From a virus: a stretch of 64,000 nt of DNA. A program made the position numbers and the translations under genes. The notes under the pieces were generated by a model. That model made no database searches, was not told where the DNA came from, and was given only the letters and a program-made list of their open reading frames with translations. The DNA lies in IMG/VR virus record IMGVR_UViG_3300045988_112819. One strand, 5' to 3'. This document shows positions 6,457-20,213 of this stretch, piece after piece; within the stretch, counting starts at the first letter, position 1, and each line of letters opens with the position of its first letter.

Positions 6457-6591
6457 ATGAATTTTGGGAAAATCGCTATGAAGTTGCGTTATGGCCAAGT
6501 TGCTATGAAAATTTTGCGCTATGGTCCGATCGGGAAAACTCGGGCCGAGTCGCCCGCGACCGGCCCGTCGAGTTTAGGAAATATAAAATAA
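6457..6591 (+). CDS. possible small ORF (44 aa, internally repetitive IAMKLRYGQVAMKILRYG) overlapping the CCGATCGG sites
   Basis: GAGGG RBS 4 nt upstream; could equally be a non-coding transcript. Confidence 0.2.
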   Translation: MNFGKIAMKLRYGQVAMKILRYGPIGKTRAESPATGPSSLGNIK

Positions 6592-6619
6592 AAAGAGAGG
6601 CCAAAGCCTCTCTTTTCTT
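6584..6619. terminator. bidirectional terminator (agagaggc caaa gcctctct)
   Basis: 8-bp stem, A-run and T-run. Confidence 0.65.
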
Positions 6620-6869
6620 AATCCTCGTTTTCTAAATTGATTTCTCCTATACAGTTACACCGTATCGGAGATTCAAAAACAAATTCATCTCCATATCCAA
6701 CGATAGTTATTTCTCCATACTTTTTACAATACTCGTCTATCTTTTCGATTAGACTATTCCAATCTTTCTCTTGCGCTTTTTGTTTTCTAAGTGCCACTTC
6801 TTTATAGGCGGTAGCACTCAACCATTGCAACTCCTCATCATTCAGTTTGTCGAAATCAATATCAACCAT
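6618..6869 (-). CDS. hypothetical protein (83 aa)
   Basis: ORF track; AAAGGAG RBS. Confidence 0.65.
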   Translation of the reverse strand: MVDIDFDKLNDEELQWLSATAYKEVALRKQKAQEKDWNSLIEKIDEYCKKYGEITIVGYGDEFVFESPIRCNCIGEINLENED

Positions 6870-6886
6870 CTAAAAATCTCCTTTCT

Positions 6887-7339
6887 TTAATGAAAAATCT
6901 CAGCCGGAATTTCACTAAAAACTTGCTTAAATTGCTCCATAGTCAGTTCTCTTGCCGCTCTCTCAACCCTTTCTTTTGCCCAGTCGCAAACCATTTCGCA
7001 GGAAATAAATTTAATTTCATACCCAGTAATGGCGTAGATTTTAGGCGACCACTCAAATCTTTTTGTATCAGCCATATTTCCAGTTAAAATCATATATTCG
7101 CCGGTGGCTTGATTTTCTTCTGACTGTTCAACCCAACATTGAACTATATTTTCAACATAGTTTTTTCCAGTTTTAACCGCTTCTTTTTCGGTTCGAGCAT
7201 TGATTAAAAAGGTAGAAAGCATAATATCATCACGAAATGATACCGTAAATTTATAAGGCTTCTTAGAGAAGATGCCCTTGCGACCTTCACACCAAAAGGT
7301 AACTTGAAAATTAACACGAAATTGTTTTAAGCTTTCCAT
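6887..7339 (-). CDS. hypothetical protein (150 aa)
   Basis: ORF track; AGGAG RBS. Confidence 0.65.
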   Translation of the reverse strand: MESLKQFRVNFQVTFWCEGRKGIFSKKPYKFTVSFRDDIMLSTFLINARTEKEAVKTGKNYVENIVQCWVEQSEENQATGEYMILTGNMADTKRFEWSPKIYAITGYEIKFISCEMVCDWAKERVERAARELTMEQFKQVFSEIPAEIFH

Positions 7340-7344
7340 TTCTT

Positions 7345-7485
7345 TTATCTCCTGTAATAATCTTCAATATAAAATTTCATTTCTTTTTCTGTACTTTGTC
7401 CTAATACCGAATAAATAGTGGAAATGTCAAGGCAAGTTCTTTTAATTAAGAAACGAATGATAGAGTTTTTAAGTTTATTCATCAT
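7345..7485 (-). CDS. hypothetical small protein (46 aa)
   Basis: AGGGAGG RBS 7 nt upstream of ATG; below the ORF-track size cutoff. Confidence 0.4.
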   Translation of the reverse strand: MMNKLKNSIIRFLIKRTCLDISTIYSVLGQSTEKEMKFYIEDYYRR

Positions 7486-7511
7486 TTCTTTTACCTCCCT
7501 TCCATGGTTAA

Positions 7512-7540
7512 ATGATACCACATTTTCGGGAGAAAGTCAA
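7512..7540 (-). promoter_or_regulatory. sigma-A promoter TTGACT-17-TATCAT (second TTGACA at 7544-7549)
   Basis: consensus hexamers, exact 17-bp spacer. Confidence 0.6.
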
Positions 7541-7642
7541 GCTGTCAAGTTGCACAAATTTTCAATTCAAAATTGTTGAAAATGACAATAGAAGAAAAAT
7601 TCGGACCGCGGCGCACGCTGGCGGTCCGCTCAAAATTTTGCA

Positions 7643-7676
7643 TAAAAAAAATCTCCCCATAAGGGGAGATTTTTCT
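7643..7676. terminator. intrinsic terminator (atctcccc ataa ggggagat) with A8 / T-run
   Basis: seen directly. Confidence 0.7.
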
Positions 7677-8039
7677 TTAGTTGAGAATTATTGGATATGC
7701 CTTGCGAATAACCACCGTAACCATGGCCGGGGGAGTGTCGCACAAGAAACGGTCATTTCTGATAAAACGACCAATTCCCATATTCTGCCACAAAGTCCGG
7801 TTTACATCCTCGTATCGTAGGGTATTATACTTGGAAAGTTTGATATACCAATCATAGATAAAGGAACCATCTTCCGGCATGGTGTAATCTGGAACCCGCT
7901 TATAATTTCTCGTATGTTCTGCGGCTCTGCGCTCAAGATCATTTGTCGTGCCAATCTTGAGAATATAGCGCCCCTTTTTGTCGATATAATGTCCGACATA
8001 TAGAAACTCTTTTCCCCTTGTCTGTAAACTAACTATAAC
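7677..8039 (-). pseudogene. GIY-YIG nuclease gene without an in-frame start (VGHYIDKKGRYILKIGTTNDLERRAAEH...); the ATG and RBS at 7999 are in the -1 frame, so probably a 1-nt indel at the tcgg(g)aca run or a programmed shift
   Basis: clear GIY-YIG motif in a frame open 8039-7677; ORF track splits it into two overlapping ORFs. Confidence 0.5.
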
Positions 8040-8083
8040 TTACCTCTTTTCTGGTAGGGCCGGGGTAGGCCGACCCTACCACG

Positions 8084-8497
8084 TTATTTCTTCGGTTTAC
8101 GCTTTTGCACAAGCGTCAACTCGAAACTATCCCCACCAATAGAAAACGCAATCTGTCTTTCCTTGTTAGTAATAGACAAGTCAGCGATAGAGAATTGACT
8201 GTTTTTTTCCAAAAACTCTGCCAATTCCGCGATTATACCGCCTTTCGTGGCGTTTGGCTTGCGTTGCCGGGGCGTAAACTTATATGCCGTTGGAGCCTTT
8301 CTCGTCCCCGCATGGGCAAACTTTTGGGCAATTTTTGCCTTATCTGGCGGTAAATCGTATTCAGTCTTTTTATCAGCCTCTACCGCTTTATCATAGGCCA
8401 ATAACTCCGCCTCCTGTTCCGGCGTTAATTGTAGGGCTTTATACCTTGCAATCCGTTCAGCGTCACTAATGCGACTGGATATAATATCACCCCCCAT
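8084..8497 (-). CDS. hypothetical basic protein (about 137 aa; alternative GTG start at 8524 inside the hairpin)
   Basis: ORF track. Confidence 0.55.
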   Translation of the reverse strand: MGGDIISSRISDAERIARYKALQLTPEQEAELLAYDKAVEADKKTEYDLPPDKAKIAQKFAHAGTRKAPTAYKFTPRQRKPNATKGGIIAELAEFLEKNSQFSIADLSITNKERQIAFSIGGDSFELTLVQKRKPKK

Positions 8498-8508
8498 ATT
8501 ATAAGTTA

Positions 8509-8531
8509 GGGCGGGGATTTTCACCCCGCCC
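8509..8531. repeat. hairpin GGGCGGGGATTTTCACCCCGCCC, copy 1 (identical copy at 11149-11173), directly upstream of a gene start
   Basis: exact repeat of a GC-rich stem-loop. Confidence 0.6.
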
Positions 8532-8540
8532 TATACGGGG

Positions 8541-8951
8541 TTACGCCATCTTAAAGAGGGACTTGCCCTTCTTCTCCGTGCAGACCACTCGACCATCGAG
8601 TTTCAACTGCCGCACAAGGGCGGCGACCTTCTGGTTAGAATAGGCCGTCAGATCAGGAATAGCCTTGAAAATTTCCGTGCAGGTTACGCCATCGGTATCG
8701 GCATCCAGACCAGCCAGATACTCCATAATCTGCTCCTTAAAATTCTCGTTCTCCTGCTGGGTGGGAGTCAGCTTCTTGTCACCGCTAGAGCTATTCTTCT
8801 TACGCAGAAGCTCCAGCTCATGGTCAATGACAGTAATAGCCACCTCGATGGTAGTGCCATACTTTACCTCGCCGTCAGTCAAGAGGGCCTTAATGTCCTC
8901 AAAACGCTGGGCCTTAGTAATGCGGATTTTCTTCTCGTCCATAATATACAT
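8541..8951 (-). CDS. hypothetical protein (136 aa; likely start MDEKK at 8942)
   Basis: ORF track. Confidence 0.6.
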   Translation of the reverse strand: MYIMDEKKIRITKAQRFEDIKALLTDGEVKYGTTIEVAITVIDHELELLRKKNSSSGDKKLTPTQQENENFKEQIMEYLAGLDADTDGVTCTEIFKAIPDLTAYSNQKVAALVRQLKLDGRVVCTEKKGKSLFKMA

Positions 8952-8990
8952 CCTTTCTGGTTTTTAGGACTGTCCTTGTCCTTTGATTAT

Positions 8991-9291
8991 ATTGTACCAC
9001 ACTATTTGGTACTTGTCAAGAGGTTTTTCAAACTTTTTTCAAGAACTTTTGCTCTTTACTTGTTTGCCCTCTCAACCTCCCTTATAGTGTAACACACTTT
9101 GGAAAGTTTGTCAAGCCCTTTTTATTTAATTTTCAAGGTGCATTGCCTTGTTTTCTGTACTTATTATAGCACATCTTCAAAGGCTTGTCAAGAGATTCTT
9201 GAAAGATTTTTGAGAAATTCGCTGTCGCTGTCTGCCGTTCGTCTCTCTCACTTTCTGAATGTATTTTACCACAAGCAAAAGCAGATTGCAA
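8991..9291 (-). promoter_or_regulatory. cluster of four tandem consensus sigma-A promoters (P1 8991-9019 TTGACA-17-TACAAT; P2 9086-9114 TTGACA-17-TACACT; P3 9163-9191 TTGACA-17-TATAAT; P4 9263-9291 TTGCAA-17-TAAAAT), each with a TGTGg extended -10
   Basis: four repeated about 30-bp promoter units 77-100 bp apart. Confidence 0.6.
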
Positions 9292-9432
9292 GCGTCAAAT
9301 TGCACAAAAATCGGAATTTTGGGAGAAAGTTTTTGTGCAGAATTTTACACAAAACGGGGTTGAAATTTTTGTGCAACATTTACAAAGAAAAACTCGGGTC
9401 GCGCCGCTCCTGCGCGACCCGCTCAATTTTGT

Positions 9433-9464
9433 ATAAAAAAAAGAGGGGTAAAACCCCTCTTTTA
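9433..9464. terminator. intrinsic terminator (agagggg taaaa cccctct) with A-run / T-run
   Basis: seen directly. Confidence 0.7.
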
Positions 9465-9476
9465 GTCGGAAACGTC

Positions 9477-9626
9477 TTAAATAGCGTTCCCGATTTTGAA
9501 GCACTTGGCCGAAGGCGACCAAAGAGAACCGGCCTTGCGCTTAGCATCAGAACGGGCACGGTCAACATCCTTGCCGACACCCACAAACACATGGCCTGCC
9601 GCAGTCTTAAAATAGAAATTCATCAT
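9477..9626 (-). CDS. hypothetical small protein (49 aa)
   Basis: AAAGGGAG RBS; own promoter and terminator; below ORF-track cutoff. Confidence 0.45.
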   Translation of the reverse strand: MMNFYFKTAAGHVFVGVGKDVDRARSDAKRKAGSLWSPSAKCFKIGNAI

Positions 9627-9674
9627 AACAAAACTCCCTTTCTTTTATGAGGGTTATTCCCTCTTGATGATTAA

Positions 9675-9703
9675 ATTATACCACAATTCGGTGAAGCTGT
9701 CAA
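9675..9703 (-). promoter_or_regulatory. sigma-A promoter TTGACA-17-TATAAT
   Basis: consensus. Confidence 0.6.
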
Positions 9704-9746
9704 GGTTTTTTACATACTTTTCAGATATTTTTTATGGAGCGGGGCG

Positions 9747-10571
9747 TTAAGCCCCGACTCGAATAGTAGGTACATTCCGCATACTTGCGGAAAGCTGACG
9801 CTGAAAGTCTGTCATAGGAGGAAATTCCTTCCTATTCTCATACAGGGCCTTTCTCATGGGCTTATGTTGGCGCATACAGTACCACATGATTTCCGCCTCA
9901 ATGAGAACATCTTCAAGCCCCGTATGACTTTCCTCAAAATCGGTATTTCCAGAGATAAACCGCCACACGATTTCCGCAGTCTTACGGGGAACGCCATTGG
10001 CTTGGATATATCCATTTTCCTGACAGAATTTCTTATAAGTGGGCATATTGCAGATAACATCTTGTGTCATCTTCATAATATCCCAAATTTCCACACTGTC
10101 AAACGGGAACCAGTAGCGAAACTTAGAGCAAGTGACCCATCGTTGAGTGACCCGCAGAGCGTTATCGTCAAACCGGGCATTATAAGCAGCCACTTCCTTA
10201 ATTCCGTATCGCTCGATAGTATCAAGCATAGCCTGACGGATTTCATAAGTAGTAGCCATCTTGCGAGTGCCGGCCCGCAATTCCTCAACATAGCGGGGGA
10301 TTTTCCAATTATAATAGGCCGTCCGCATTAAGTCTCGCTCGTCATTGAAAATGTCCCGATTTACAAAACTTGCAGTTTCGTAAATATTGCCCTTGGTATC
10401 TACTACAGCCCAACCGCAGTCATATACCAGTACATTTGACATATCCATGCGGACACGCTCAGGAGTAATAATCTCCCCATCCTCTCCGATTTCAGCGGGA
10501 ACGGTTTCGGTTAGTGTGTTGGCGGTTTCAGTGTCAACCACCAGCACATAATGTCTGCGCTTATCAATCAT
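9747..10571 (-). CDS. DEDDh-family (DnaQ-like) 3'-5' exonuclease (274 aa)
   Basis: Exo I VVDTET, Exo II AYNARFDDNAL, Exo III HTGLEDVLIEAEI. Confidence 0.65.
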   Translation of the reverse strand: MIDKRRHYVLVVDTETANTLTETVPAEIGEDGEIITPERVRMDMSNVLVYDCGWAVVDTKGNIYETASFVNRDIFNDERDLMRTAYYNWKIPRYVEELRAGTRKMATTYEIRQAMLDTIERYGIKEVAAYNARFDDNALRVTQRWVTCSKFRYWFPFDSVEIWDIMKMTQDVICNMPTYKKFCQENGYIQANGVPRKTAEIVWRFISGNTDFEESHTGLEDVLIEAEIMWYCMRQHKPMRKALYENRKEFPPMTDFQRQLSASMRNVPTIRVGA

Positions 10572-10605
10572 AATCTATCAAGTCCTTTCTTCTCTTGATG
10601 GTATT

Positions 10606-10634
10606 ATTATAGCACATTTAAGGCTTGGTGTCAA
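10606..10634 (-). promoter_or_regulatory. sigma-A promoter TTGACA-17-TATAAT
   Basis: consensus; second promoter TTGCAA-17-TATTAT at 10766-10794. Confidence 0.55.
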
Positions 10635-10893
10635 GAGGAAAAGGAAAGTTTTTTTGGCTTAATCCTTTCAGTAGCTAATTGAAATTTAGCCGTATACTTT
10701 GCTTCCTTTACTTTCTAAGAGTTCGCGACCTCTTGATTTCTTGGCCTCTCCCTCCTGACATGATAATAATACCATACTTTTGGGAGAATTGCAAGATGGC
10801 AAATTGCACAACTTTTCGCCGCCAAAATTGTGCAACATCTACAAAGAAAAAAATTCGGCCCGCACCGCCCAAGCGCGGGCCGCCCAAACGACA

Positions 10894-10934
10894 ATAAAAA
10901 AATACCCCTCTCAATAATGAGAGGGGTATTTTTA
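10894..10934. terminator. intrinsic terminator (atacccctctc aataat gagaggggtat)
   Basis: 11-bp stem, A-run / T-run. Confidence 0.7.
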
Positions 10935-11126
10935 ATATCCAATATATTCCCTATTGATTAGTTCATCTATCCCATATACCAGATCATCAAGAGAGACAGG
11001 AAAATCATCATCAATTTCATTCTCTTCCATGCTCCGGCTAATCTGGCTTATGAGAATTGAAGCATTTCTCAATGTTTGTTTTTCCGTTGAATCAAAAATG
11101 AGCCTATTAACTTTCTTAATTTGCAT
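10932..11126 (-). CDS. hypothetical small acidic protein (64 aa; start MQIKK)
   Basis: AAAGGGAG RBS; ORF track extends to an upstream ATG inside the hairpin. Confidence 0.5.
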   Translation of the reverse strand: MQIKKVNRLIFDSTEKQTLRNASILISQISRSMEENEIDDDFPVSLDDLVYGIDELINREYIGY

Positions 11127-11148
11127 TGACAAAACTCCCTTTCTTTGT

Positions 11149-11173
11149 GGGGCGGGGATTTTCACCCCGCCCC
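11149..11173. repeat. hairpin GGGGCGGGGATTTTCACCCCGCCCC, copy 2
   Basis: identical to 8509-8531. Confidence 0.6.
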
Positions 11174-11177
11174 CCAT

Positions 11178-11639
11178 TCAGTCCAAATTGTTGATATATT
11201 CGATTATGTCTGTCTCTCCTGGATTTATTGTATCTCCTAAATGCCAACCGTACCTAATTTTATCATTATCATCAAAAAGGATAAACGGCGGTTCATAGAA
11301 ACTACGGAATACACATTTGGCTTTGGTCGTTCCGTATGCCACACAATGACATTTATGGGCCGGAAATTTATACCTTGCAAGCCATTCCTTTTTTGCGGCT
11401 GTGACTGCTTTCTTATATTCGGGAGTGCTTTCAGGTGGTAGCCATGTAATTACTCTAATTTCCCATCCGTTATTGATTGCCTTTAGAAGCGCATTTCGGA
11501 GGGCTTCCATGTCCCACATAGGGGCCGCGTCTCGGAATGGGGTAGGGTCTCCATTGCGGAGTTTTTCGAGCCAATTAGGGACTGCATACAAGTCCGCGAT
11601 AGTTCCATCCATGTCAAAGCAGAGCATTTTTTTAGTCAT
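11178..11639 (-). CDS. HAD-superfamily hydrolase, likely 5'(3')-deoxyribonucleotidase-like (153 aa)
   Basis: motif I FDMDGTIADL; AGGAG RBS; promoter TTGACA-17-TATAAT at 11664-11692. Confidence 0.5.
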   Translation of the reverse strand: MTKKMLCFDMDGTIADLYAVPNWLEKLRNGDPTPFRDAAPMWDMEALRNALLKAINNGWEIRVITWLPPESTPEYKKAVTAAKKEWLARYKFPAHKCHCVAYGTTKAKCVFRSFYEPPFILFDDNDKIRYGWHLGDTINPGETDIIEYINNLD

Positions 11640-11645
11640 TGTATA

Positions 11646-11894
11646 TCAATCTCCTTTTGTTTTATTATACCATTTATTGCACACCTTGTCAACAAGTTTT
11701 TCAAAAAAAGTTTTACGCCGATATACCTTATAAGGCATTGACATATAATCTATATAGATCAGAGGGTCTTGTAAAAGCACAGTTCGTATATAAATCTCAT
11801 AATTAACCGGGGTAGTAGTATGCCCGAATTGTCTACGATAAATTTCAGCCACGGTTAAGTATTCATTGGGCTGAATAAACTTTGAAGGTTTCAT
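11646..11894 (-). CDS. hypothetical protein (82 aa)
   Basis: ORF track; AAAGGAGGGG RBS; promoter TTGCAA-17-TATTAT at 11922-11950. Confidence 0.55.
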   Translation of the reverse strand: MKPSKFIQPNEYLTVAEIYRRQFGHTTTPVNYEIYIRTVLLQDPLIYIDYMSMPYKVYRRKTFFEKLVDKVCNKWYNKTKGD

Positions 11895-12052
11895 TTAGTA
11901 CCCCTCCTTTTTTCTGTACTAATAATACCATAATTTAAGGATAATTGCAAGATGGCGAATTGCACAAGATTTCAAGACAAAAATTGTGTAGAACTTACAA
12001 ATAAGAAAACTCGGCGCGCCGCGTGCGTCAGCGCGCCGTCGAATTTTTAGTG

Positions 12053-12084
12053 TATAAAAAAGAAGGGCCGAAGCCCTTCTTTTA
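12053..12084. terminator. intrinsic terminator (agaagggc cgaa gcccttct)
   Basis: seen directly. Confidence 0.65.
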
Positions 12085-12540
12085 TCTTTCAGCCATATTT
12101 GAAAAATACCTTGCGACTAATTTAACCATTTCGTGAATAGATTCATCATTGTGCAGATTTTTGTAACAAATGAATCCAATTTGTCCCCCATCAGAAAAAA
12201 TGGGAGTAATAAACATAGATTTCCACGCTGTCGCAGGTTGGCTGATATTACTCCATTCATCTGGTGGTATAGAAATTTTGAAAGAACTAGGCCCGCTTAA
12301 AAGTTTATCTGAATCGAAGATCGCCGCGGAAATGTGATTAACAGAAAGGGCATTTCGCATTTCGTGGGCATGGTCAACGAAAAAAGATAGTGGAGAATAT
12401 TTCTTGAAGGCTATACAGTCGCCATCAAGAAAAATTTCCATAGGGTCGCCTTCTCTAATTCGCATACTCCTACGAATTTCTCTAGGAATAACAATACGCC
12501 CTAGGTCATCAATATGTCGAACAATACCAACAGCTCTCAT
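12082..12540 (-). CDS. SpoVT-like regulator: AbrB/SpoVT swapped-hairpin N-domain plus GAF-like C-domain (152 aa)
   Basis: GIVRHIDDLGRIVIPREIRRSMRIREGDPMEIF matches the AbrB/SpoVT N-domain. Confidence 0.65.
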   Translation of the reverse strand: MRAVGIVRHIDDLGRIVIPREIRRSMRIREGDPMEIFLDGDCIAFKKYSPLSFFVDHAHEMRNALSVNHISAAIFDSDKLLSGPSSFKISIPPDEWSNISQPATAWKSMFITPIFSDGGQIGFICYKNLHNDESIHEMVKLVARYFSNMAER

Positions 12541-12548
12541 TTTTTTAT

Positions 12549-12584
12549 CGCGGGAGCATAGAATACAAGTCCTATACTCCCGCG
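12549..12584 (-). promoter_or_regulatory. 36-nt hairpin (cgcgggag...ctcccgcg) between the GGAGG Shine-Dalgarno and the ATG of the SpoVT-like gene
   Basis: 8-bp GC stem; SD-to-ATG spacing is 44 nt unless folded. Confidence 0.45.
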
Positions 12585-12594
12585 CCTCCTTTCC

Positions 12595-12993
12595 TTAAAG
12601 CGATTTCCGCAGTTCGTCCAGCAGAGTAGACAGAGTTTTCATGTCGCCGCCCATTTCCAGCTTGACGCAGATCAGACTTGCATTTTCCTCTACCCACTTT
12701 GTCACAGTGGACAGCTCTTCATCCATCGTTTGGTTGATGGGGTTGTAAAGACTGCACATATTTGACTTGGCACACTCCTGGTCATAATAGCGGCGGAGCT
12801 TATATCCCTTCGCTGTGGCGCGCTCAATAATCCTTGTATTCAGCGCCTCAATCTCTTTTCGGCCTTCCTCGATGAAATCCTCAAACTCTTTCATAGCGTC
12901 CGCATACTTGGCTCTGATTTCCTCTCGCTTGGCGTTCGCAATCTTGTTGACCTCATCATTGATATAGGCTTCAATCCTCTTAGTAACACGCAT
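12595..12993 (-). CDS. hypothetical coiled-coil protein (132 aa)
   Basis: ORF track; promoter TTGACA-17-TACAAT at 13054-13082. Confidence 0.6.
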   Translation of the reverse strand: MRVTKRIEAYINDEVNKIANAKREEIRAKYADAMKEFEDFIEEGRKEIEALNTRIIERATAKGYKLRRYYDQECAKSNMCSLYNPINQTMDEELSTVTKWVEENASLICVKLEMGGDMKTLSTLLDELRKSL

Positions 12994-13090
12994 TTCTAAA
13001 ACTCCCTTTCTTATTTTAATTTATTTTTGGGGGGCTGCCCCTTCCATAGTCTTATTGTACCACAGAAGGGGCAGTTTGTCAACCCCTTTT

Positions 13091-13321
13091 TTACAAGGAA
13101 AGTAAATCCATCATAGTCATTTCATCAACTGTCTTATCGGCTTCCTCATCGAAAATACCCTTGATAATATCGGCCGCGTCATCGGGAGTACACATGCCGA
13201 TCCGCAGGAATTTTCCAAAAGACTGGAGCATTGCCTGTGCTGCTTCTCCTGGGCAGAACTCCTCCATGGTCTTATGCAGAAGAATAATCCCCTGTCTATC
13301 CTGCTCAGTCATTCTATACAT
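13091..13321 (-). CDS. hypothetical acidic protein (76 aa)
   Basis: ORF track; promoter TTGACA-17-TATAAT at 13373-13401. Confidence 0.55.
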   Translation of the reverse strand: MYRMTEQDRQGIILLHKTMEEFCPGEAAQAMLQSFGKFLRIGMCTPDDAADIIKGIFDEEADKTVDEMTMMDLLSL

Positions 13322-13405
13322 AGCAATATTTCCTTTCTGGTTTAATGAGTTTTCCTTCTCTTTACATTATTGATTATACCACTGTTTAAGCGGTTTGTCA
13401 ACCCT

Positions 13406-13558
13406 TTACATCAAATTTTTTGCCAAATATGCGAACATTAGAATTTCTGCGGCAAACATGATTTCAAGCCGAATACAGCTCTTTTGAGCAGCCGCCATTA
13501 ACTGCCATGCAAGGCAGGCCACAAACGCAATCAAAACAATCATTGTGAAGGTAGTCAT
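13406..13558 (-). CDS. small membrane protein (50 aa)
   Basis: AAAGGAG RBS 8 nt from ATG; one hydrophobic helix. Confidence 0.4.
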   Translation of the reverse strand: MTTFTMIVLIAFVACLAWQLMAAAQKSCIRLEIMFAAEILMFAYLAKNLM

Positions 13559-13587
13559 ATATATACTCCTTTTCTGGTTAAGAGGGT

Positions 13588-13821
13588 TTATACCCTCTTA
13601 ACCTCGATAATCTCCATATCGAAATCTTCCCAATATGCGCCCATGAGAAGGTCATGCCGCAAGTCCCCTTCATTCTCATAGTCCATATCTTCCAGAATTT
13701 GGCTCCACTCGCTTTCGGAATACTGGGCCTTGAGCCAGTCCCATCCCGCATGGCGTGCGCCAGTTTCAGTATCAGAAACGCCGATAATCTTTTCTCTACT
13801 GTCAGCCATTACCAGATACAT
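13588..13821 (-). CDS. hypothetical acidic protein (77 aa)
   Basis: ORF track; promoter TTGACT-17-TATACT at 13875-13903. Confidence 0.55.
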   Translation of the reverse strand: MYLVMADSREKIIGVSDTETGARHAGWDWLKAQYSESEWSQILEDMDYENEGDLRHDLLMGAYWEDFDMEIIEVKRV

Positions 13822-14021
13822 AACTCATTCTCCTTTTGTTTCGAGGGCTTTTGTTCTCCCCTCTTGATGATACAAGTATAACAGATAACAGATAGAAAGT
13901 CAAGCGATTTTGGGAAAAAATCTTCCATCAGATTGCACAACAATTCGAGCCTAAAATTGTGCAAATTGCCTCTTGATAAAAAATTCCGGCCGCGCCTGTG
14001 GTGCACGGCCGGGCGAACGAA

Positions 14022-14053
14022 TAAAAAAAGAACCTCCTGAATTTCAGGAGGTC
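14022..14053. terminator. intrinsic terminator (acctcctga att tcaggaggt)
   Basis: 9-bp stem after an A-run. Confidence 0.6.
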
Positions 14054-14094
14054 ATTAATTTCTGCATACCAACAACTCCCTTTCTTTTGAGAAG

Positions 14095-14328
14095 TCAATC
14101 GGCATTTTCAACAATCTTTAATCCGTTTGCTTGGATAATTTTCATAGCTTCTTCAAGTGAGGAATCAACCGATCCGCAGTCAATGCAGATGTATTTTCTG
14201 CCATCTTTTACCATAGTAGTGAAATAGTATTCCTAACCGGAAGTAAGTCCCATTTGTTCACGCAAACGAATCGGAATCATAATTCTACCACTTGAATCCA
14301 ATTTGCGAGAGAAAGTAGTTTCTTGCAT
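14095..14328 (-). CDS. AbrB-family swapped-hairpin DNA-binding protein (77 aa), 1 in-frame TAG as sense
   Basis: RKLDSSGRIMIPIRLREQMGL matches AbrB VDELGRVVIPIELRRTLGI. Confidence 0.6.
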
Positions 14329-14394
14329 TTTGATAAATAAATTCTAGTGACCTAGGCTCGTGCGAAAAACGACTCCATCACGGGAATCGCCGAT

Positions 14395-14532
14395 TTAGAA
14401 CAATCGGAAGGAACATTTACCACTCGCAAGGCATTTCTGGCAGAACTGAGACATAGGACAATTCTTGCAAGAATCCTAGTTCAAACAGAACTCCAAAATA
14501 ACCGCGAGTGCTTTCAGCACTTCTAAGGTCAT
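14395..14532 (-). CDS. Cys-rich small protein (45 aa, CxxC x3), 1 in-frame TAG
   Basis: AAGGAG RBS; TAA stop; same frame as the AbrB gene downstream. Confidence 0.4.
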
Positions 14533-14580
14533 TAGAAAAACTCCTTTCTTTATTTTTCTATAATTATTATAATATATTTT

Positions 14581-14620
14581 TTTGAAAAAATCAATAGGGC
14601 CGGCATTACGCCAGCCCTAA
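14581..14620. terminator. terminator hairpin (tagggccggc attacg gccagcccta) followed by a T-run on the minus strand
   Basis: seen directly. Confidence 0.5.
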
Positions 14621-14737
14621 TCTCTGTAGCCAAACCAGATGGTATTTACCAATGTGAAGTAGAACTGTGCCATATCCCTTATTTGTCCAAACAGTGGAAC
14701 CGATAGGATATGTATGCGGTAAACGCTCAATACTCAC
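14606..14737 (-). CDS. possible small protein (43 aa) from a GTG overlapping the upstream TGA (GTGA)
   Basis: GGAGGTGG RBS at 7 nt. Confidence 0.25.
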   Translation of the reverse strand: MSIERLPHTYPIGSTVWTNKGYGTVLLHIGKYHLVWLQRLGLA

Positions 14738-14949
14738 TTTAGTTCCACCTCCTCGAAAGCTCCAATTTTTAGCAGATAATTATATAAGGCTCTATCTTGC
14801 TTGTCGCCGGTATTAAAATCAAGTGTACAAACACAGCCGGTAACATTGGAATTGAGAGGATGACCCAAACACCAGCCAGCCATATTACAAATTGTGTTTC
14901 CAAACTCCACAGACTTTTCTGCACTTTCAAATTTAATAACAGCAATCAT
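14734..14949 (-). CDS. hypothetical protein (71 aa; start MIAVIKF)
   Basis: AAGGAG RBS; ORF track begins at an upstream ATG (14988). Confidence 0.55.
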   Translation of the reverse strand: MIAVIKFESAEKSVEFGNTICNMAGWCLGHPLNSNVTGCVCTLDFNTGDKQDRALYNYLLKIGAFEEVELK

Positions 14950-15012
14950 ATTTATTTCTCCTTTTTTATCGTGGGGAGTGGAGGCCATAAACCTCCACTC
15001 CCGCAGGTTTTC

Positions 15013-15252
15013 TTAACCATCTACATAAATGATTAGATTGTTGCCTCTTGCTTTAATGCCAGTTACCGGAAGTCCCAGCACCCATTCCTTAGACGCCTCA
15101 ATGACGTCTCCTCCCAGGGTTATCTTGTGATCAGGTAGCTCATGGTAATGAGCTTGAGTATTCTCATTGATAATTTCGACCCCTTCCCCGTCAAAGAACA
15201 TGGTATCTTCTGCGAGCGGAGAAAGCAGACCTGCAATCATTTTCAAAGTCAT
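15013..15252 (-). CDS. hypothetical protein (79 aa)
   Basis: ORF track; promoter TTGACA-17-TATTAT at 15307-15335. Confidence 0.6.
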   Translation of the reverse strand: MTLKMIAGLLSPLAEDTMFFDGEGVEIINENTQAHYHELPDHKITLGGDVIEASKEWVLGLPVTGIKARGNNLIIYVDG

Positions 15253-15469
15253 TTCTTTTACTTCCTTTCAAATTCTTTTTGTGACCTTGTCCCTCTGGAC
15301 AAGTATATAATAACACATGACAAGAGGAATGTCAAGTAATTTCGGGAGAAAATCTTTTGTCGAATTGCACAGACTTTCGATCATATAATTGTTGAAACTG
15401 CCGGATAAATAAAAATTTGGGCCGCGGCGCACGCTGGCGGCCCGGCGAAAAGTCAATATGGAAAAGTGC

Positions 15470-15515
15470 ATAAAAATGACTGGCAATCTTTGTGCAGATT
15501 GCCAGTCATTTTTAT
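15470..15515. terminator. intrinsic terminator (tgactggcaatc ... gattgccagtca) plus T-run
   Basis: 12-bp stem. Confidence 0.7.
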
Positions 15516-15519
15516 TCCT

Positions 15520-15753
15520 TTACAGCTCCATGGTTTCCATGAGATAGCCTGTGCCCATCGGCACCTCCCGTAGATTGCTGGGACTTATACGCAACTTATA
15601 TTTCCTATTGATTTTATTCGCCGCACTTGTCTTATCTCTCGCTTGGACAATTACTGGTATATGGAGTTTATTCAGAGTGGGCTTATTAAGACTGAAATAT
15701 CCCATCTCTCTGCGCTTGCGGCCCATGGCGTCGATATAAGTCCCTCTATACAT
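15520..15753 (-). CDS. hypothetical small basic protein (77 aa)
   Basis: ORF track; GGAGG RBS. Confidence 0.6.
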   Translation of the reverse strand: MYRGTYIDAMGRKRREMGYFSLNKPTLNKLHIPVIVQARDKTSAANKINRKYKLRISPSNLREVPMGTGYLMETMEL

Positions 15754-15766
15754 TTTTTTCCTCCTA

Positions 15767-15913
15767 TTATTTAGTCATGAGAACGAACATATTATATTCG
15801 CTGTGCTGTGGGTTTGGCTCACAGTTATCCGCCACTATATCAGCCCAACTAAGAACTGCCCAGAGTAGGAGAGCGGCACAAATGCCGCCTCCTATCCGCT
15901 TAATAATTCTCAT
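15767..15913 (-). CDS. small membrane / secreted protein (48 aa)
   Basis: GGAGG RBS; ATGA overlap with the upstream stop. Confidence 0.4.
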   Translation of the reverse strand: MRIIKRIGGGICAALLLWAVLSWADIVADNCEPNPQHSEYNMFVLMTK

Positions 15914-16212
15914 TTCCATTTCTTTGCCTCCTGTTCTTTAACCCATTCAGTACCGATTGTATCTCCGACCATAGCAACCTTATATTCGTCTTCGCTTGCA
16001 ATTCTGGTATGCAGATTGCTATTGATAAACTTTCTATTGATATAAGCCCAGTGTGGCATATAGGCCACTCGCATGGCATTAAAAGCATCCAGGTCTAAGA
16101 TGATGCCGTCCTCTACCTCTGCGGAACGCACATTCATCTTATACCGCAAAAGTTTAATAAATTCACGCTTTCTAAAAGTAGGCCCAACGAACCACTTAAT
16201 ATAATTGTTCAT
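15910..16212 (-). CDS. hypothetical protein (100 aa)
   Basis: ORF track; GGAGAAAGG RBS. Confidence 0.6.
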   Translation of the reverse strand: MNNYIKWFVGPTFRKREFIKLLRYKMNVRSAEVEDGIILDLDAFNAMRVAYMPHWAYINRKFINSNLHTRIASEDEYKVAMVGDTIGTEWVKEQEAKKWK

Positions 16213-16258
16213 AGTCTTTTATCCTTTCTCCCCGTATAGCCGTTAGGTCAGCTTCTTT

Positions 16259-16405
16259 TTAATCTACGATTTCTCCACTGGATAAATCCACAATCCAATG
16301 ATTAGGATTGACTATCTCGTGACTGACCTTCCATCTTGCCATTGAAAGGGTGGATGGTTCATAATAGCGCATTTTCTCATTGGCTAAAACTTGTAACTGA
16401 TACAT
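16259..16405 (-). CDS. hypothetical small protein (48 aa)
   Basis: AAAGGGG RBS. Confidence 0.35.
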   Translation of the reverse strand: MYQLQVLANEKMRYYEPSTLSMARWKVSHEIVNPNHWIVDLSSGEIVD

Positions 16406-16435
16406 ATAGTATGCCCCTTTCTTTTAATTATTATA

Positions 16436-16469
16436 ACCCTGCCTTGCCTTGTGTTTTGCAAGGCAGGGT
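16436..16469. terminator. hairpin (accctgccttgc ... gcaaggcagggt)
   Basis: 12-bp stem downstream of 16480. Confidence 0.5.
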
Positions 16470-16479
16470 TTATAAACTG

Positions 16480-16854
16480 TTATCCTCTAATTTCTTCTTC
16501 TTGGGTCTTTGTCGCCCAATCAAAAGAGGTACGAACATCGGAAGGTCTGCGGAATTGCTCTGCTTCGGCCTCTGTCCCGCCTAATGCCATAGCATAGGCT
16601 TTCCAGTCAACCGTTCCTTTTGCGGTAGTTTCTTTATATACCACCGCTTTCGCCTTACCCTGCATTTGTACCGTGCCATATAGATAACTTGTTTTGTCCG
16701 TAGCCTTAAAAGCCTTACCTAATCTGGAGAATAGCTCTTTAGCCTTAGCCTTAGCTGCTTTCTCCGCCGCCTCCGCCGCAGACTTAGCCATCTTAGCGGC
16801 CATATACTCCATAATAATGGCTCGATCTTCATTGGTAAAATCAATCTTTTTCAT
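16480..16854 (-). CDS. hypothetical Ala/Lys-rich protein (124 aa)
   Basis: GGGAG RBS; promoter TTGACA-17-TACAAT at 16908-16936. Confidence 0.55.
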   Translation of the reverse strand: MKKIDFTNEDRAIIMEYMAAKMAKSAAEAAEKAAKAKAKELFSRLGKAFKATDKTSYLYGTVQMQGKAKAVVYKETTAKGTVDWKAYAMALGGTEAEAEQFRRPSDVRTSFDWATKTQEEEIRG

Positions 16855-17303
16855 ACTCTTTTGACTCCCTTTTTTTTTGTGGTGTGGTTCTCTTTTGTTC
16901 TGTCTGTATTGTATCAAACCTTTAGCAGTTTGTCAATACCTTTTTTGAAATTTTTTTAATTTTCAAAGTGCCGTGCTTTTGTCTCTGTCCTACTGGACAA
17001 GTCCAGTTTACCACCAAAATGCTCACTTGTCAATAGTTTTTTTGAAATTTCTTTCTCTCTCTTTTGCACAAAATAAATAACATCTTGTTGTGCAGTTTGC
17101 ACAAATCCTTTACGCGCGCGTATTCCTTTAGGGGGCGTGCTTTCTTGCTTTCGTACTTTAACGAGTGAAAGAGGCCAACTACACTTCAATACTTTACCAT
17201 GTGAAAGAGGGGCGTGTATTTTGGGAAAAACTGGAAATTTTTTTGTAAAATCGTTCTGCCACGCCATTTCAAAATCTAAATCGACTTTTCAATCTCAATA
17301 ACG

Positions 17304-17336
17304 AAAAAGAGAGAAGAACTCACTTCTTCTCTCCGC
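17304..17336. terminator. intrinsic terminator (agagagaagaa ... ttcttctctc)
   Basis: seen directly. Confidence 0.6.
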
Positions 17337-17463
17337 ATTTACACTTCTTTTTTAAATTATATATAATATGATCTTCTACTTTGTAAATTGGATATAATTC
17401 TCCACAGACTGCGCATATATTATAATAATGCTTGCCGTCAAACCATACTAATACTTTATCCAT
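17320..17463 (-). CDS. small Cys-rich zinc-ribbon-like protein (47 aa)
   Basis: CxxC and CxC pairs; overlaps the upstream gene end. Confidence 0.35.
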   Translation of the reverse strand: MDKVLVWFDGKHYYNICAVCGELYPIYKVEDHIIYNLKKKCKCGEKK

Positions 17464-17698
17464 CGTCGGTTGCCTCAAAACTAAAAATCAAATTATATCC
17501 ATCCTCAGTTTCTATCGTTTCATATCCTTTTAAGATATATCCATCCTCTAGTTTAATATTAATCGCATCAGATCTCCACATTGTAGGAATATACTCTAGC
17601 CTTGGATAACGATTGTTCTCCTCCACGCAAGCAGTCAACAATAGTAAAATCAAAACTATATTAATTATAAAGCTGATACTTCTTCCCAATTTTGTCAA
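17456..17698 (-). CDS. lipoprotein (signal peptide MTKLGRSISFIINIVLILLLLTAC with LTAC lipobox) from a TTG start
   Basis: GGAGG RBS 8 nt before TTG; ORF track begins at an upstream ATG (17728) overlapping pth2. Confidence 0.5.
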   Translation of the reverse strand: MTKLGRSISFIINIVLILLLLTACVEENNRYPRLEYIPTMWRSDAINIKLEDGYILKGYETIETEDGYNLIFSFEATDDG

Positions 17699-18098
17699 TT
17701 TCTTCCGCCTCCATTGGCCTAAATCCAATACACGTCAAAGTCCCTTCCGGGCCTTCGCGTTCTAATTCTGTTCTACAAGCATCATAGATAAGCCAATAAT
17801 CCTTATTCTCTTCCCATCCTAATTCTTCTGCTATCTTAACAGCCTTTAACAAATCATTCTTATTCTTCGCTCTACAAACTACTTTGGTCTCCGCTTCCGC
17901 TATCCAATTATGGAATAAGTCTCTATCGAGGCTTATTCCTATATGATATATAAGACCGTCTCTTTCTTTAACAACTTCTTTACTTCCCCAATATAACTTT
18001 TCCAAAAGAAAAGCAATAGAAGCATGGGAAACTTGTGCGGCAAGTTTCCCTGGAGACATATTTAAGTCTCGCCTCGCAATAATTAATTGCTTGAACAT
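17661..18098 (-). CDS. peptidyl-tRNA hydrolase, PTH2 family (145 aa)
   Basis: MSPGKLAAQVSHAS and C-terminal TLTCIGFRP match Pth2. Confidence 0.65.
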   Translation of the reverse strand: MFKQLIIARRDLNMSPGKLAAQVSHASIAFLLEKLYWGSKEVVKERDGLIYHIGISLDRDLFHNWIAEAETKVVCRAKNKNDLLKAVKIAEELGWEENKDYWLIYDACRTELEREGPEGTLTCIGFRPMEAEEIDKIGKKYQLYN

Positions 18099-18850
18099 TT
18101 TTCCAAAACCTCCAAGAAAATTCTAAAATTGCGGGAATTGCGGTTTGGAATCGCAAAATAGATATTTGGAATATTATAATTGCGGGCTGCGTTTACGAGC
18201 AAGATGGCGACCGTTGATGGATCTTGCATAAAAACACCACAGCCCCAGGCTCCCGCGATTAAATTTTCCACTCCCTTAGCCTCGGCAATTCGATACATAA
18301 AATTAATTCTCTCTTCCATTATCCTATTGTTTAGAGAAAGAGGAACTTGCTGATAAGTATGTGCTGTTCTATAATTAGGAGAAGCACAAGTAATTACATC
18401 AGCTAATTTTATACTATCGTCTTTTTCAAAGACTACATCAGGAGTATAGATAGCTCTATCAAGATATAGGGCTCGATTCAGTCTCTGTCTATTCCATGCG
18501 TAATAAGTATCATCAAAAGCAAGAAGAATAGGGTAAAGGTTGCTTTCGTGACACAATGCCTCTTCTTGTGCGGAGCTACCTCCAAGGAAATAACCACCTG
18601 GATGTTTATAGCTTGCATAATTTAAGATCGCAGTCTTGCTCCAATCGGTTAAACCGAATAGACAGGATACGCTATCTTGGTCTTTAAGATAAAAGGTATT
18701 ATGGTGGGTTTCTCGCGGTTTTTGCGGAAAAGGAAGATTGGGGCCAAAAATTTCAGAGTTTATAATTGCGCGATCTGTATCTTCCTTGAGTCTCACTTTA
18801 ATGTCTGCGTAATGCGATTGCGCGTGTTGTTTGAGCTCTTCTCGTTTCAT
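18083..18850 (-). CDS. PARG-like macrodomain protein (DUF2263 / TIGR02452), 255 aa
   Basis: HPGGYFLGGSSAQEE (GGG-x6-8-QEE signature) and GAWGCGVFMQDP; AAAGGAAAC RBS at MKREEL. Confidence 0.65.
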   Translation of the reverse strand: MKREELKQHAQSHYADIKVRLKEDTDRAIINSEIFGPNLPFPQKPRETHHNTFYLKDQDSVSCLFGLTDWSKTAILNYASYKHPGGYFLGGSSAQEEALCHESNLYPILLAFDDTYYAWNRQRLNRALYLDRAIYTPDVVFEKDDSIKLADVITCASPNYRTAHTYQQVPLSLNNRIMEERINFMYRIAEAKGVENLIAGAWGCGVFMQDPSTVAILLVNAARNYNIPNIYFAIPNRNSRNFRIFLEVLEKCSSN

Positions 18851-18893
18851 TGCAGTTTCCTTTCTTCCGTGCGGTTGGGCAGAAGTGGATAAT

Positions 18894-19082
18894 TTAATTA
18901 TCCCAATCTTCAAATAAAGTGTGTAAACTATTTGTTTCCGCCGCCAATCTCTTTAAATATTCTTTAAGAATTTTATTTTCTTTAACTTTAATTGCATAAT
19001 CGCAAGTATTGTCGCAGTCTGGTGTGTACTACCGACCGAATCTATTATAACAATAATCAATACAAGGACACATTTTACTCAT
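18894..19082 (-). CDS. Cys-rich small protein (62 aa), 1 in-frame TAG
   Basis: ATG overlaps the upstream gene end. Confidence 0.35.
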
Positions 19083-19428
19083 ATTTACACCCATTCATTC
19101 TACAGTCTATTGTGCATTGCCCTGACGCTCCTTCACAAGGAATAGCATCAGGATAGTATTCAAAATAAGACGAGGTTAATAGAACTTCATATCCAAGTTC
19201 CCGCAGTATTCTTTCTGCGACATATCTATCTCTTAATTTAATCCATTCTTCTCTATTTACTTTTGTTTCTTCATATATTTTTCGAGATTCTTCCATATCT
19301 ATTGTTATGATACCATCGGTGTTAGTTTTAAATACTGAAGGACTTTGTGTATGATAAAATTTTCGAAAGGGATTGTTAATATGAAGAACTTCTTCAGCAT
19401 ATTTGTCAAAATCTCCCGAAAATTTCAT
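19075..19428 (-). CDS. hypothetical protein (117 aa), start overlapping the folD stop (TAATG)
   Basis: ORF track frame; coupled start. Confidence 0.5.
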   Translation of the reverse strand: MKFSGDFDKYAEEVLHINNPFRKFYHTQSPSVFKTNTDGIITIDMEESRKIYEETKVNREEWIKLRDRYVAERILRELGYEVLLTSSYFEYYPDAIPCEGASGQCTIDCRMNGCKYE

Positions 19429-20213
19429 TATCTTTGCGCCTGTTTCGCTAACTATAAACAATTTTTCATCAACCCCAATCTTGTTAATAGACCTACTCCT
19501 CCGAGGACAGGAGTTGACCATACATTATTTCTTTTTGCGATTTCATCAATTTCTACAAAATCACCAAGAATAATTCCTGCTTCATTTCTGCGAATACCAA
19601 CATCTATAACAATAGCGTTAGGACAGGCTTCTCTTGTTAAGCTAAATTTTCCTACCGCAGAGACAATTAAATCTGCTTGCCTTGTTAAATAGAGTTTTGT
19701 ATTTATATCTGTTTTGCTATGACATACTGATACGGTCATATTTCTATCCAGTAGAGCTTTAGCCATTGGCTTTCCTACAATATCGCTTCTTCCCAAAACA
19801 ACAGCAGATTTACCTTCGTAGTTAAAACCACATTCATCCAAATAGTCTATAATTCCTCTTACTGTTGCTGGAGTAATATTGCTCATAGGATTTAAACCAT
19901 CCGCATCTTTAGAGATAGGTATTTGACTATAATTGAAATCAATTCCATTTGCTACTGGCATTTGAACTATTACCGCATCCCAGTCTTTTGCATGGCCTAA
20001 GAGTAATCTTAACTCTACTGAACTATTCGCTCTAAACACTTCTGCTTCCCAACCAAGAGCATTAAAGTCTTTTATTTTATTACGAATATAAATTTGATTC
20101 GCGAGATCCTAGGCTGTTGCGTCGATAATCATGAGTGATGGAACATTACCACTAATCTCCCGCAATTTGTTTACCTATTGTTGAAAATATTCTTTTATAT
20201 TAATCTATTGCAT
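19428..20213 (-). CDS. folD: methylenetetrahydrofolate dehydrogenase/cyclohydrolase FolD (261 aa), 4 in-frame TAG as sense
   Basis: VIVQMPV...KDADGLNP, GKSAVVLGRSDIVGKPMA, VIDVGI, TPVLGGVGLLT match FolD; GGAGG RBS; ORF-track fragment ends at a TAG. Confidence 0.75.

Follow-up and report, generated by a model that had tools for sequence, protein, structure and literature searches.

A putative split ribosome-binding site at a short SpoVT-like gene, and a TAG-bearing AbrB-like gene near it, in a recoded gut phage

The stretch of DNA analyzed here (the window) is the 64,000 nucleotides (nt) of IMG/VR virus record IMGVR_UViG_3300045988_112819. It belongs to a tailed phage, probably of gut Clostridia, in which TAG is read as glutamine (Gln). 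Its minus-strand early arm carries a SpoVT-like gene of 152 amino acids (aa) at 12082..12540, a 36-nt hairpin in the leader of that gene at 12549..12584, and a stand-alone gene of 77 aa with an AbrB fold at 14095..14328. The hairpin lies between the Shine-Dalgarno (SD) sequence of the SpoVT-like gene and its AUG, an arrangement that suggests a split ribosome-binding site. An initial annotation, made from the letters of the sequence, had pointed to the same features, and its coordinates for both open reading frames (ORFs) and for the hairpin were exact. Coordinates are those of the window, and the genes, leaders, promoters and terminators given below with coordinates lie on the minus strand unless marked (+).

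The SpoVT-like gene begins with the ATG at 12540, contains no TAG codon and is the last cistron of its operon. Its product joins an AbrB-type swapped-hairpin N-domain (aa 1-50) to a shortened GAF-like C-domain (aa 51-152), and the SpoVT architecture that the initial annotation had assigned to it was borne out. The ORF scored above the cut-offs of the hidden Markov models (HMMs) PF04014 (33.6 versus 24.7 bits) and TIGR01439 (39.5 versus 28.3 bits), and its top sequence match in the PDB was B. subtilis SpoVT (2W1T, E=1.5e-21), which aligned over residues 1-82 with an additional weak colinear match at 108-147. From 20 members of the family an AlphaFold model was obtained, with a predicted local distance difference test (pLDDT) score of 85.9. 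With this model, Foldseek returned 2W1T_A first (E=2.9e-10, template-modelling (TM) score 0.73), and next came the GAF domains of fRMsr, KdpD and CodY. The Pfam GAF_2 model remained below its threshold (14.3 versus 28.6 bits) and the Pfam search gave no match to PF15714 (SpoVT_C); the GAF-type C-domain is supported at the fold level only.

B. subtilis SpoVT (2W1T; TIGR02851) is thus the best match in both sequence and fold, with the same order of AbrB-type N-domain and GAF-type C-domain, an N-domain that, as judged by eye, has ∼74% identity in its first 50 residues, and conserved DNA-contact arginines. It differs from the phage protein in length (178-185 aa versus 152 aa), in the ∼22-26 residues that are missing here from the middle of the GAF-like domain (query 83-107 versus SpoVT 85-131), and in its expression, since SpoVT, which acts in spore maturation, is encoded by a sigma-G forespore gene whereas the 152-aa gene belongs to a phage early operon with sigma-A-type promoters. 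Orthology with SpoVT was ruled out: the TIGR02851 equivalog model gave 94.2 bits against a cut-off of 235.9, with only residues 2-82 aligned. Because the equivalog model failed and the GAF domain is shortened, we place the 152-aa protein in the AbrB family as a short SpoVT-like protein and do not call it SpoVT. A mis-called start was also ruled out, as the N-terminus aligns residue for residue with AbrB and SpoVT.

Database homologues of the 152-aa protein formed two groups, metagenomic proteins of 145-155 aa and bacterial SpoVT proteins of 176-185 aa (34-40% identity over 90-100% of the query). A scan of IMG/VR confirmed 238 relatives, and many of the 80 that were kept lie in contigs of 100-200 kb. 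AbrB contacts DNA through arginines R8, R15, R23 and R24, and all four are invariant or nearly so in the SpoVT-like family alignment. The short SpoVT-like family looks phage-specific; its DNA-binding domain is near-canonical for AbrB/SpoVT, and its GAF-like domain is minimal. We infer that both AbrB-fold proteins of the window act as transcription regulators; their targets and timing are likewise inferred. Database variants of the SpoVT-like gene (proteins P0002, P0006 and P0021) include a one-base change in a G5 run (12186-12190) by which the C-terminus is frameshifted, as well as a deletion in which the 76-aa gene (13091-13321) has become joined to its C-terminal half.

Directly upstream of the SpoVT-like gene is a cistron for a 132-aa coiled-coil-like protein (12595..12993), which ends with a TAA stop at 12595-12597 and always precedes the SpoVT-like gene in the clade with this leader. 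The SD sequence AAAGGAGG (12585..12592, with GGAGG at 12585-12589) lies 2 nt past that stop and, measured linearly, 44 nt from the AUG. It is followed by the hairpin, which forms 13-15 base pairs (bp) with a 6-10-nt loop. As the initial annotation had reported, a perfect stem of 8 bp is found exactly between the GGAGG and the ATG; these eight G/C-rich pairs are extended to 13-15 by G.U wobbles, and the hairpin alone has a folding energy of -24.8 kcal/mol. An 8-nt A-rich spacer, AUAAAAAA (12541..12548), then leads to the AUG, and no SD-like run occurs in this spacer or in the 3' arm of the hairpin. In minimum-energy folds, neither the GGAGG nor the AUG is paired in the stem. AAGGAG precedes the start codon by 6-11 nt in most of the remaining genes of the phage, and the window holds no second example of the split layout. 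The hairpin is not a terminator, since it has no U-tract on either strand and was not flagged in the terminator scan. Searches of Rfam gave nothing at gathering thresholds in the whole window and far sub-threshold matches at E<=1 in 11900-14700.

The same layout is shared by eight distinct leaders, those of the window and of the related loci L009, L010, L013, L014, L015, L262 and L312, the last being the one new hairpin variant among the matches listed in a pattern scan of metagenomes. The SpoVT-like proteins of the related loci share 54-67% identity with that of the window. The order in each is a stop codon, G(G)AA(A/G)GGAGG (GAAGGGAGG in L013 and L262), an uninterrupted helix of 12-15 bp, an A-rich spacer of 8-10 nt and the ATG. 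A GGAGG-type SD is kept in 8/8 leaders (GGGAGG in L013 and L262). The stem sequences vary (CGCGGGAGUAUAG, GCGGGAGCAUAG, GCGGGAGCGUAAG, GGGAGUGCAAG and GAGAGGGCAAG) and compensatory changes are seen among the relatives. The SD and the stem are separated by 0-2 nt and the stem and the AUG by 8-10 nt. Helix energies are -20 to -26 kcal/mol, and the fold z-scores, -3.8 to -6 in six relatives, exceed what chance would give. In L014 and L015 (2958-2990 in both) the stems are near-identical, with one basal pair different, and the loops, GCTATTG and CAATAGC, are exact reverse complements of each other. This points to an inversion across the palindrome, and the orientation of the loop would then be immaterial.

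The leaders were aligned with a covariance model (MAFFT misaligned the 3' arms). In this alignment, 90.8% of cells were paired, compared with 31-57% when the partners were slid by 1-3 columns, and 8 of 14 pairs had changed on both sides. The covariation score was 0.467, which none of 500 shuffles reached (0.222 in shuffles), and this for eight related sequences in an alignment fitted to the structure counts as support and not as proof. The hairpin is thus conserved in relatives, which the initial annotation had made decisive for its proposal.

Initiation in Firmicutes depends strongly on the SD. At the SpoVT-like gene the sole SD is too distant, no proximal SD exists, and a stable hairpin intervenes. 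We lean towards the view that this is a functional split ribosome-binding site of the type found at T4 genes 25 and 38. The hairpin would loop out the 36 nt between the lone SD and the AUG, so that in the folded RNA the GGAGG would stand ∼8 nt plus one helix width from the AUG, and the hairpin would then be needed for initiation. The hairpin probably also serves mRNA processing or stability, the initiation region of the SpoVT-like gene having become adapted around it. The initial annotation had offered two roles for the hairpin, and these data agree with the one in which it brings the SD and AUG together. They do not agree with the other, sequestering of the start, because an element that holds neither the SD nor the AUG inside its stem cannot sequester them.

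The split ribosome-binding sites of T4 genes 38 and 25 were reportedly described by Nivinskas et al. in 1999 and by Malys and Nivinskas in 2009. At these genes a hairpin shortens the distance between SD and AUG (22 to 5 nt and 27 to 11 nt), and the sites are kept only in close relatives (PMC3014915). The leader described here resembles them in its distant SD, in the stable hairpin in between, in its position at an intercistronic junction and in being kept in close relatives only. It differs in the longer distance bridged (44 to ∼8-10 nt), in belonging to a phage of Firmicutes, in being one of several similar hairpins and in being known from sequence alone. If the reading is right, a Firmicutes phage would provide a clear case of such a site beyond the T4 group, and the natural compensatory variants of the leader provide a ready mutational series.

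Besides the limit noted for the covariation, several points weigh against a split site. The looped-out segment (31-37 nt, 12-15 bp) exceeds the T4 cases. Since similar hairpins occur upstream of ordinary SDs in the same phage and in distant relatives, the hairpin may be there for reasons other than the spacing of SD and AUG. One such hairpin, at 14974..15002, was found as a match to the covariance model, and there the order is stop, hairpin, the SD AAAGGAG, 8 nt and the ATG at 14949; two further intercistronic hairpins that are not terminators precede normal SDs at 13576-13603 and 8052-8081. Since the 14974-15002 hairpin has the usual order, the SpoVT-like leader is the odd one out, distinguished by an SD on the 5' side of its hairpin. 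The mechanically called ORF 14734-14988 has its start, 14988, within the loop of the 14974-15002 hairpin; its true start is likely the ATG at 14949, with AAAGGAG 8 nt upstream.

The hairpin is probably a general intercistronic element of these phages, with a presumed role in processing or stability. In the stricter form of this explanation, the hairpin is a generic processing site or exonuclease stabilizer, its adjacency to the GGAGG is incidental and it is irrelevant to initiation, and a low output of the SpoVT-like protein would come from an SD-independent start on the A-rich leader or from re-initiation after the upstream gene. The three non-terminator hairpins of similar sequence, each before a normal SD, speak for it, as do relatives at 39-47% identity in which a hairpin and then an SD precede AbrB/SpoVT-like genes, the persistence of the hairpin in locus L122 despite the deletion of the SpoVT-like gene there, and the exact inversion of the L014 and L015 loops, by which neither loop sequence nor orientation would matter. 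Incidental adjacency does not account for a GGAGG-type SD directly 5' of the stem in all eight leaders, past the upstream stop and outside any coding sequence, when the neighboring 132-aa protein has diverged to 27-48% identity, nor for a post-stem spacer held at 8-10 nt, and almost all other genes of the phage use a strong proximal SD. We regard an irrelevance to initiation as a realistic explanation that is nevertheless somewhat unlikely. A generic element and a split site are compatible and not mutually exclusive.

The position of the upstream stop, 10 nt before the stem, raises another explanation, in which the hairpin is inhibitory, holding the SD functionally distant or blocking the 30S subunit, and the SpoVT-like protein is made only once ribosomes of the upstream gene, a helicase or a nuclease open the stem. 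A ribosome terminating at the stop would reach the base of the helix, the 132-aa and SpoVT-like genes always occur together, and inhibitory structures in initiation regions are common in T4 (PMC3014915). Such coupling or switching is difficult to reconcile with an SD and an AUG that are both unpaired in minimum-energy folds. Additionally, opening the stem would leave the SD at a non-functional distance of 44 nt from the AUG, and a ribosome at the TAA could melt just the first few of the 13-15 pairs. An inhibitory hairpin therefore seems improbable to us.

The SpoVT-like cassette lies in a hypervariable segment of 10.9-13.8 kb. Comparison of window positions 10900-13830 with L013, L009, L014, L015 and L122 gave protein identities of 27-78%, with some genes absent, whereas the portal and AbrB-like proteins of the same phages are 98-99% identical. 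L122 has lost the SpoVT-like gene through a deletion that left the hairpin and terminator in place, together with the 3' end of the 132-aa gene. Because of this deletion, we consider the SpoVT-like gene to be accessory. A specific co-divergence of the 132-aa gene with the SpoVT-like C-domain was considered and dropped, since the entire 10.9-13.8-kb segment is hypervariable.

The transcription unit of the SpoVT-like gene starts at a promoter at 13875-13903 and contains strong internal promoters at 13373-13401 and 13054-13082. The latter (13054..13082), a sigma-A-type promoter of the form TTGACA-17-TACAAT with TG, is the one nearest to the pair of 132-aa and SpoVT-like genes. Two tandem intrinsic terminators (12058-12083 and 12012-12038) end the operon. 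The internal promoters (13040-13082 and 13373-13410) have no copy of the inverted repeat described below and carry their consensus TTGACA -35 inside a short G/C inverted repeat, GGGGTTGACAAACTGCCCC; the same type of promoter design precedes the SpoVT-like genes of many distant relatives.

That the window is phage DNA follows from its matches to a portal protein (PHROG 2739, E=1.5e-80) and a virion structural protein. An ORF of 2851 codons is probably the tape-measure gene, judging by its size and by analogy with phAss-1. Reading through TAG lengthens the longest ORF from 464 to 2913 aa. The late plus-strand genes contain up to 99 in-frame TAGs each, and TAG makes up 304 of their 648 Gln codons (47%), compared with ∼4 of 100 in the minus-strand early arm (189-19521). 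The 64 tabulated genes end with TAA (53) or TGA (11) and never with TAG. Thus, TAG lies in frame in essential genes, aligns with Gln in homologues and stops no gene, and it is a sense codon for Gln in a code-15 phage. The early arm is written almost wholly in the standard code, and it encodes the two AbrB-fold proteins, for which DNA binding is predicted. Against the recoding stands the lack of any tRNA, and hence of a suppressor tRNA, within the 64-kb window. No suppressor tRNA was found in the early-region loci of relatives either, on contigs of 96-164 kb in which most of each genome lies outside those loci.

Similarity at the DNA level to a named phage was limited to a promoter stretch of 71 nt in common with phAss-1. 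Code-15 gut phages such as phAss-1 and its relatives (PMC10607447) and crAss-like phages (PMC9523058) resemble this phage in a concentration of in-frame TAG in late and structural genes, in standard-code early genes, in a very long tape-measure gene and in predicted Clostridia hosts. They differ in that a small TAG-bearing regulator operon lies inside the early arm here. Two contigs of ∼148 kb with the 77-aa gene were binned with Oscillospiraceae and Eubacterium metagenome-assembled genomes, which is a weak hint to the host.

Five late plus-strand genes have no TAG at all (27908-28597, 28617-29669, 29734-30267, 33418-34809 and 36377-36916, all (+)), in the midst of neighbors in which about half of the Gln codons are TAG. 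The product of 33418-34809 matches a virion structural protein PHROG and that of 28617-29669 an unnamed PHROG. These five genes may encode the most highly expressed virion proteins.

The second AbrB-fold gene (14095..14328) encodes 77 aa when its single in-frame TAG (14233-14235, codon 32, inside the AbrB-like domain) is read as Gln, and it contains an invariant ICIDCG motif. As a single sequence it remained below HMM cut-offs (PF04014, 21.5 versus 24.7; MraZ, 22.4 versus 23; TIGR01439, 18 versus 28.3), so that of the domain matches to which the initial annotation had looked, PF04014 stood for the 152-aa protein and fell short for the 77-aa protein, and GAF_2 fell short as well. Membership of the swapped-hairpin AbrB superfamily is supported by a match to PHROG 4681 (7.6e-8), by the family profile against AbrB structures (5.8e-5), by an hhalign match (85%) to the SpoVT-like N-domain, and by an AlphaFold2 model of the family, for which the database homologue P0121 was the first row. 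The model has a beta-beta-alpha-beta-beta topology at a pLDDT of only 68.7, and its top Foldseek matches were AbrB 1YFB (probability 0.99), SpoVT, MazE and AbrB-like proteins of archaeal viruses. The initial annotation had described a second, stand-alone AbrB-like protein with one TAG, which it left without interpretation; the fold-level matches agree with it, and the TAG is a Gln codon, which gives the gene a different meaning. The family comprises ∼41 clusters, almost all metagenomic, with members of 77-79 aa in which ICIDCG is invariant and a C-terminal helix follows; R8, R15 and R23 are invariant and R24 is replaced by E. Its nearest known counterparts are the N-domains of AbrB and Abh (1YFB, 1Z0R, 2K1N, 2FY9) and viral AbrB-like proteins such as C68 of pSSVx and C56 of pSSVi (3O27, 7XI6); AbrB, C56 and C68 are, with SpoVT and MazE, its best fold matches. 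The protein shares with AbrB-type proteins the beta-beta-alpha-beta-beta pattern and R8, G14, R15, P19 and R23, and it differs from AbrB in the R24-to-E change, ICIDCG, the C-terminal helix, which AbrB does not have, and a TAG sense codon. No other AbrB-fold ORF was found in the window, and no Pfam DNA-binding domain was found among the ∼20 other early-arm proteins.

In the standard code the 77-aa ORF would stop at codon 32, within its domain, and this, together with the lack of a suppressor tRNA in the window, would make it a pseudogene with a nonsense mutation or the source of a 31-aa fragment only. That explanation is scarcely credible and already contradicted by the data. The frame downstream of the TAG is open and conserved, and the position of the TAG shifts by lineage among orthologues (codon 25, 32 or 40), the others having CAA or CAG there. 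Additionally, databases hold full-length members of 77-79 aa, the late structural genes bear up to 99 TAGs, and TAG ends no gene. Because the TAG aligns with Gln in orthologues and the phage reads TAG as Gln, we take the ORF to be an intact gene.

Both AbrB-fold proteins match PHROG 4681, which is labelled antitoxin, PF04014 bears the name MazE_antitoxin, and each gene has a small partner gene immediately upstream. One or both could on these grounds be MazE/AbrB-type antitoxins of toxin-antitoxin modules and not regulators of a phage or host programme, which we think very unlikely. Neither partner, the 132-aa protein or a small Cys-rich ORF, matched a toxin family in Pfam, NCBIfam or PHROGs. 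SpoVT proteins are the best matches of the 152-aa protein, which shares their architecture, GAF-like domain included. Finally, a partner gene that comes first and a leader or hairpin that separates the two are atypical of type II modules.

The AbrB-like gene belongs to a two-gene unit of its own, which is set off by a terminator (14595-14619) and a promoter (TTGATT-17-TATAAT, 14566-14594; together 14566..14619). The promoter is followed by the small Cys-rich ORF, a conserved leader of 66 nt, the AbrB-like gene and the unit's own terminators (14031-14053 and 13986-14012). The Cys-rich ORF (14395..14532) also has one in-frame TAG (14476-14478, codon 19); in orthologues TAG is at codon 19, 29 or 32, with Gln there in other lineages. 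Each cistron of the unit thus holds one TAG, compared with none in the tabulated genes for several kb on either side. Because both cistrons carry an in-frame TAG, their full-length products need TAG suppression. In the window and two other loci the Cys-rich ORF has an A3 run and encodes 45 aa, and in most relatives an A4 run gives 38 aa, the consensus of the relatives being 38 aa with the end ...CQKMPCEW; either a genuine frameshift or a sequencing error in the homopolymer would explain the difference. An assignment of this ORF as a SCIFF/ranthipeptide precursor was unsupported (freyrasin-like, E=0.012, 15.6 versus 30 bits).

The structured leader of the AbrB-like gene (14329..14394) has a conserved hairpin that holds its only GGAG, and no SD lies within 20 nt of the AUG. 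Across the window and loci L092-L124 this leader is 66-88 nt long and looks more conserved than coding DNA, with a conserved hairpin (CG[AG][CU]UCC...GGAGUCG) and the near-invariant motifs UUUUCGCAC and CUAGGUCACUAGAA. It has no Rfam match.

The sequence TTGCACAA occurs 12 times in the window versus 2.1 expected. The copies form inverted repeats of the type TGCACAA-N16-TTGTGCA, which precede the -35 elements of seven promoters on the minus strand by 9-37 nt. One repeat (13934..13963) is upstream of the -35 of the 13875-13903 promoter, and six others are at 7551, 9346, 10805, 11961, 15467 and 17065. The half-site is a pseudo-palindrome, TTGNNCAA, and half-sites are 23 bp apart. Each of the promoters with a repeat is preceded by a pair of terminators, and the repeats are kept in related phages. 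An exact-pattern scan of IMG/VR for the repeat gave mostly single matches among the matches listed.

The initial annotation had proposed the two AbrB-fold proteins as binders of such repeats, and they are the only recognizable DNA-binding proteins nearby. Each of the 30 loci that carry the ICIDCG gene contains 2-5 repeats, but no ICIDCG gene was detected in some of the repeat-bearing loci, and a group with SpoVT-like genes (L023-L034) is almost free of repeats, counts that are confounded by phylogeny and by the short loci. Co-occurrence tied the TTGCACAA repeat to neither protein.

The most interesting open reading of the AbrB-like unit is that of a regulator dependent on the code switch. The unit would be a sensor and timer of the switch in genetic code, a proposal that we consider speculative and rather unlikely. 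The full-length regulator would appear only once a suppressor tRNA is active, and it would then act on the TGCACAA-N16-TTGTGCA sites at early promoters, closing the early or opening the late programme; half-sites 23 bp apart would suit a dimer of AbrB-type dimers. The proposal draws on a sigma-A-type promoter inside the standard-code early arm, on a regulator start without an SD behind a highly conserved structured leader, and on the presence of TAG in both cistrons in most recoded relatives, with Gln positions that shift between lineages. Among 30 related loci, TAG is present in both cistrons or in neither, with few exceptions. In 8 of the 30 the unit is free of TAG, which weighs against a timer maintained by selection. 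A portal-protein scan on whether the relatives with a TAG-free unit are recoded returned only close relatives. If true, a regulator whose full-length product depends on the TAG code switch would be a handle on timing in recoded phages.

The first late operon is preceded by a sigma-A-like promoter as well (20600-20660(+); TTGACA, 17-18 nt, TATTAT), and because of this, control at the level of translation is plausible. Late timing may rest on the decoding of TAG and not on a special promoter. The first late gene likely starts at 20658 and not at 20634.

Phage-borne spoVT and abrB homologues, phages that read TAG as Gln and split ribosome-binding sites are all already known, and each piece here is a new example. 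Homologues of spoVT and abrB have been listed as enriched among phages that infect spore-formers, and the Gut Phage Database contains many matches to an AbrB HMM (Schwartz et al. 2023, PMC10294663; Bernard et al. 2021, bioRxiv 10.1101/2021.07.15.452460). The initial annotation had suggested that a phage with such regulators could reprogram sporulation decisions of its host. The parts of PMC10294663 and bioRxiv 10.1101/2021.07.15.452460 consulted give survey-level annotations and do not describe the short GAF variant, a split site or TAG-bearing regulators. If our reading of the SpoVT-like family is correct, it is a widespread family of short phage proteins that combine a host-like DNA-binding domain with a trimmed sensor domain, and it offers a concrete protein for the published idea that gut phages interfere with sporulation.

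Two other regions of the minus strand were noted. In the early arm, the region 17661-18850 encodes a PTH2 peptidyl-tRNA hydrolase (E=1.4e-22) as well as a PARG of the microbial type (E=1.1e-25). With a stop codon reassigned in this phage, the hydrolase may bear on the code switch. At 59026-63985, a reverse transcriptase (PF00078, E=1.3e-16, 60124-61341) adjoins a repeat-rich, surface-like protein of 542 aa (62357-63985) and small ORFs, and this region looks like a diversity-generating retroelement.

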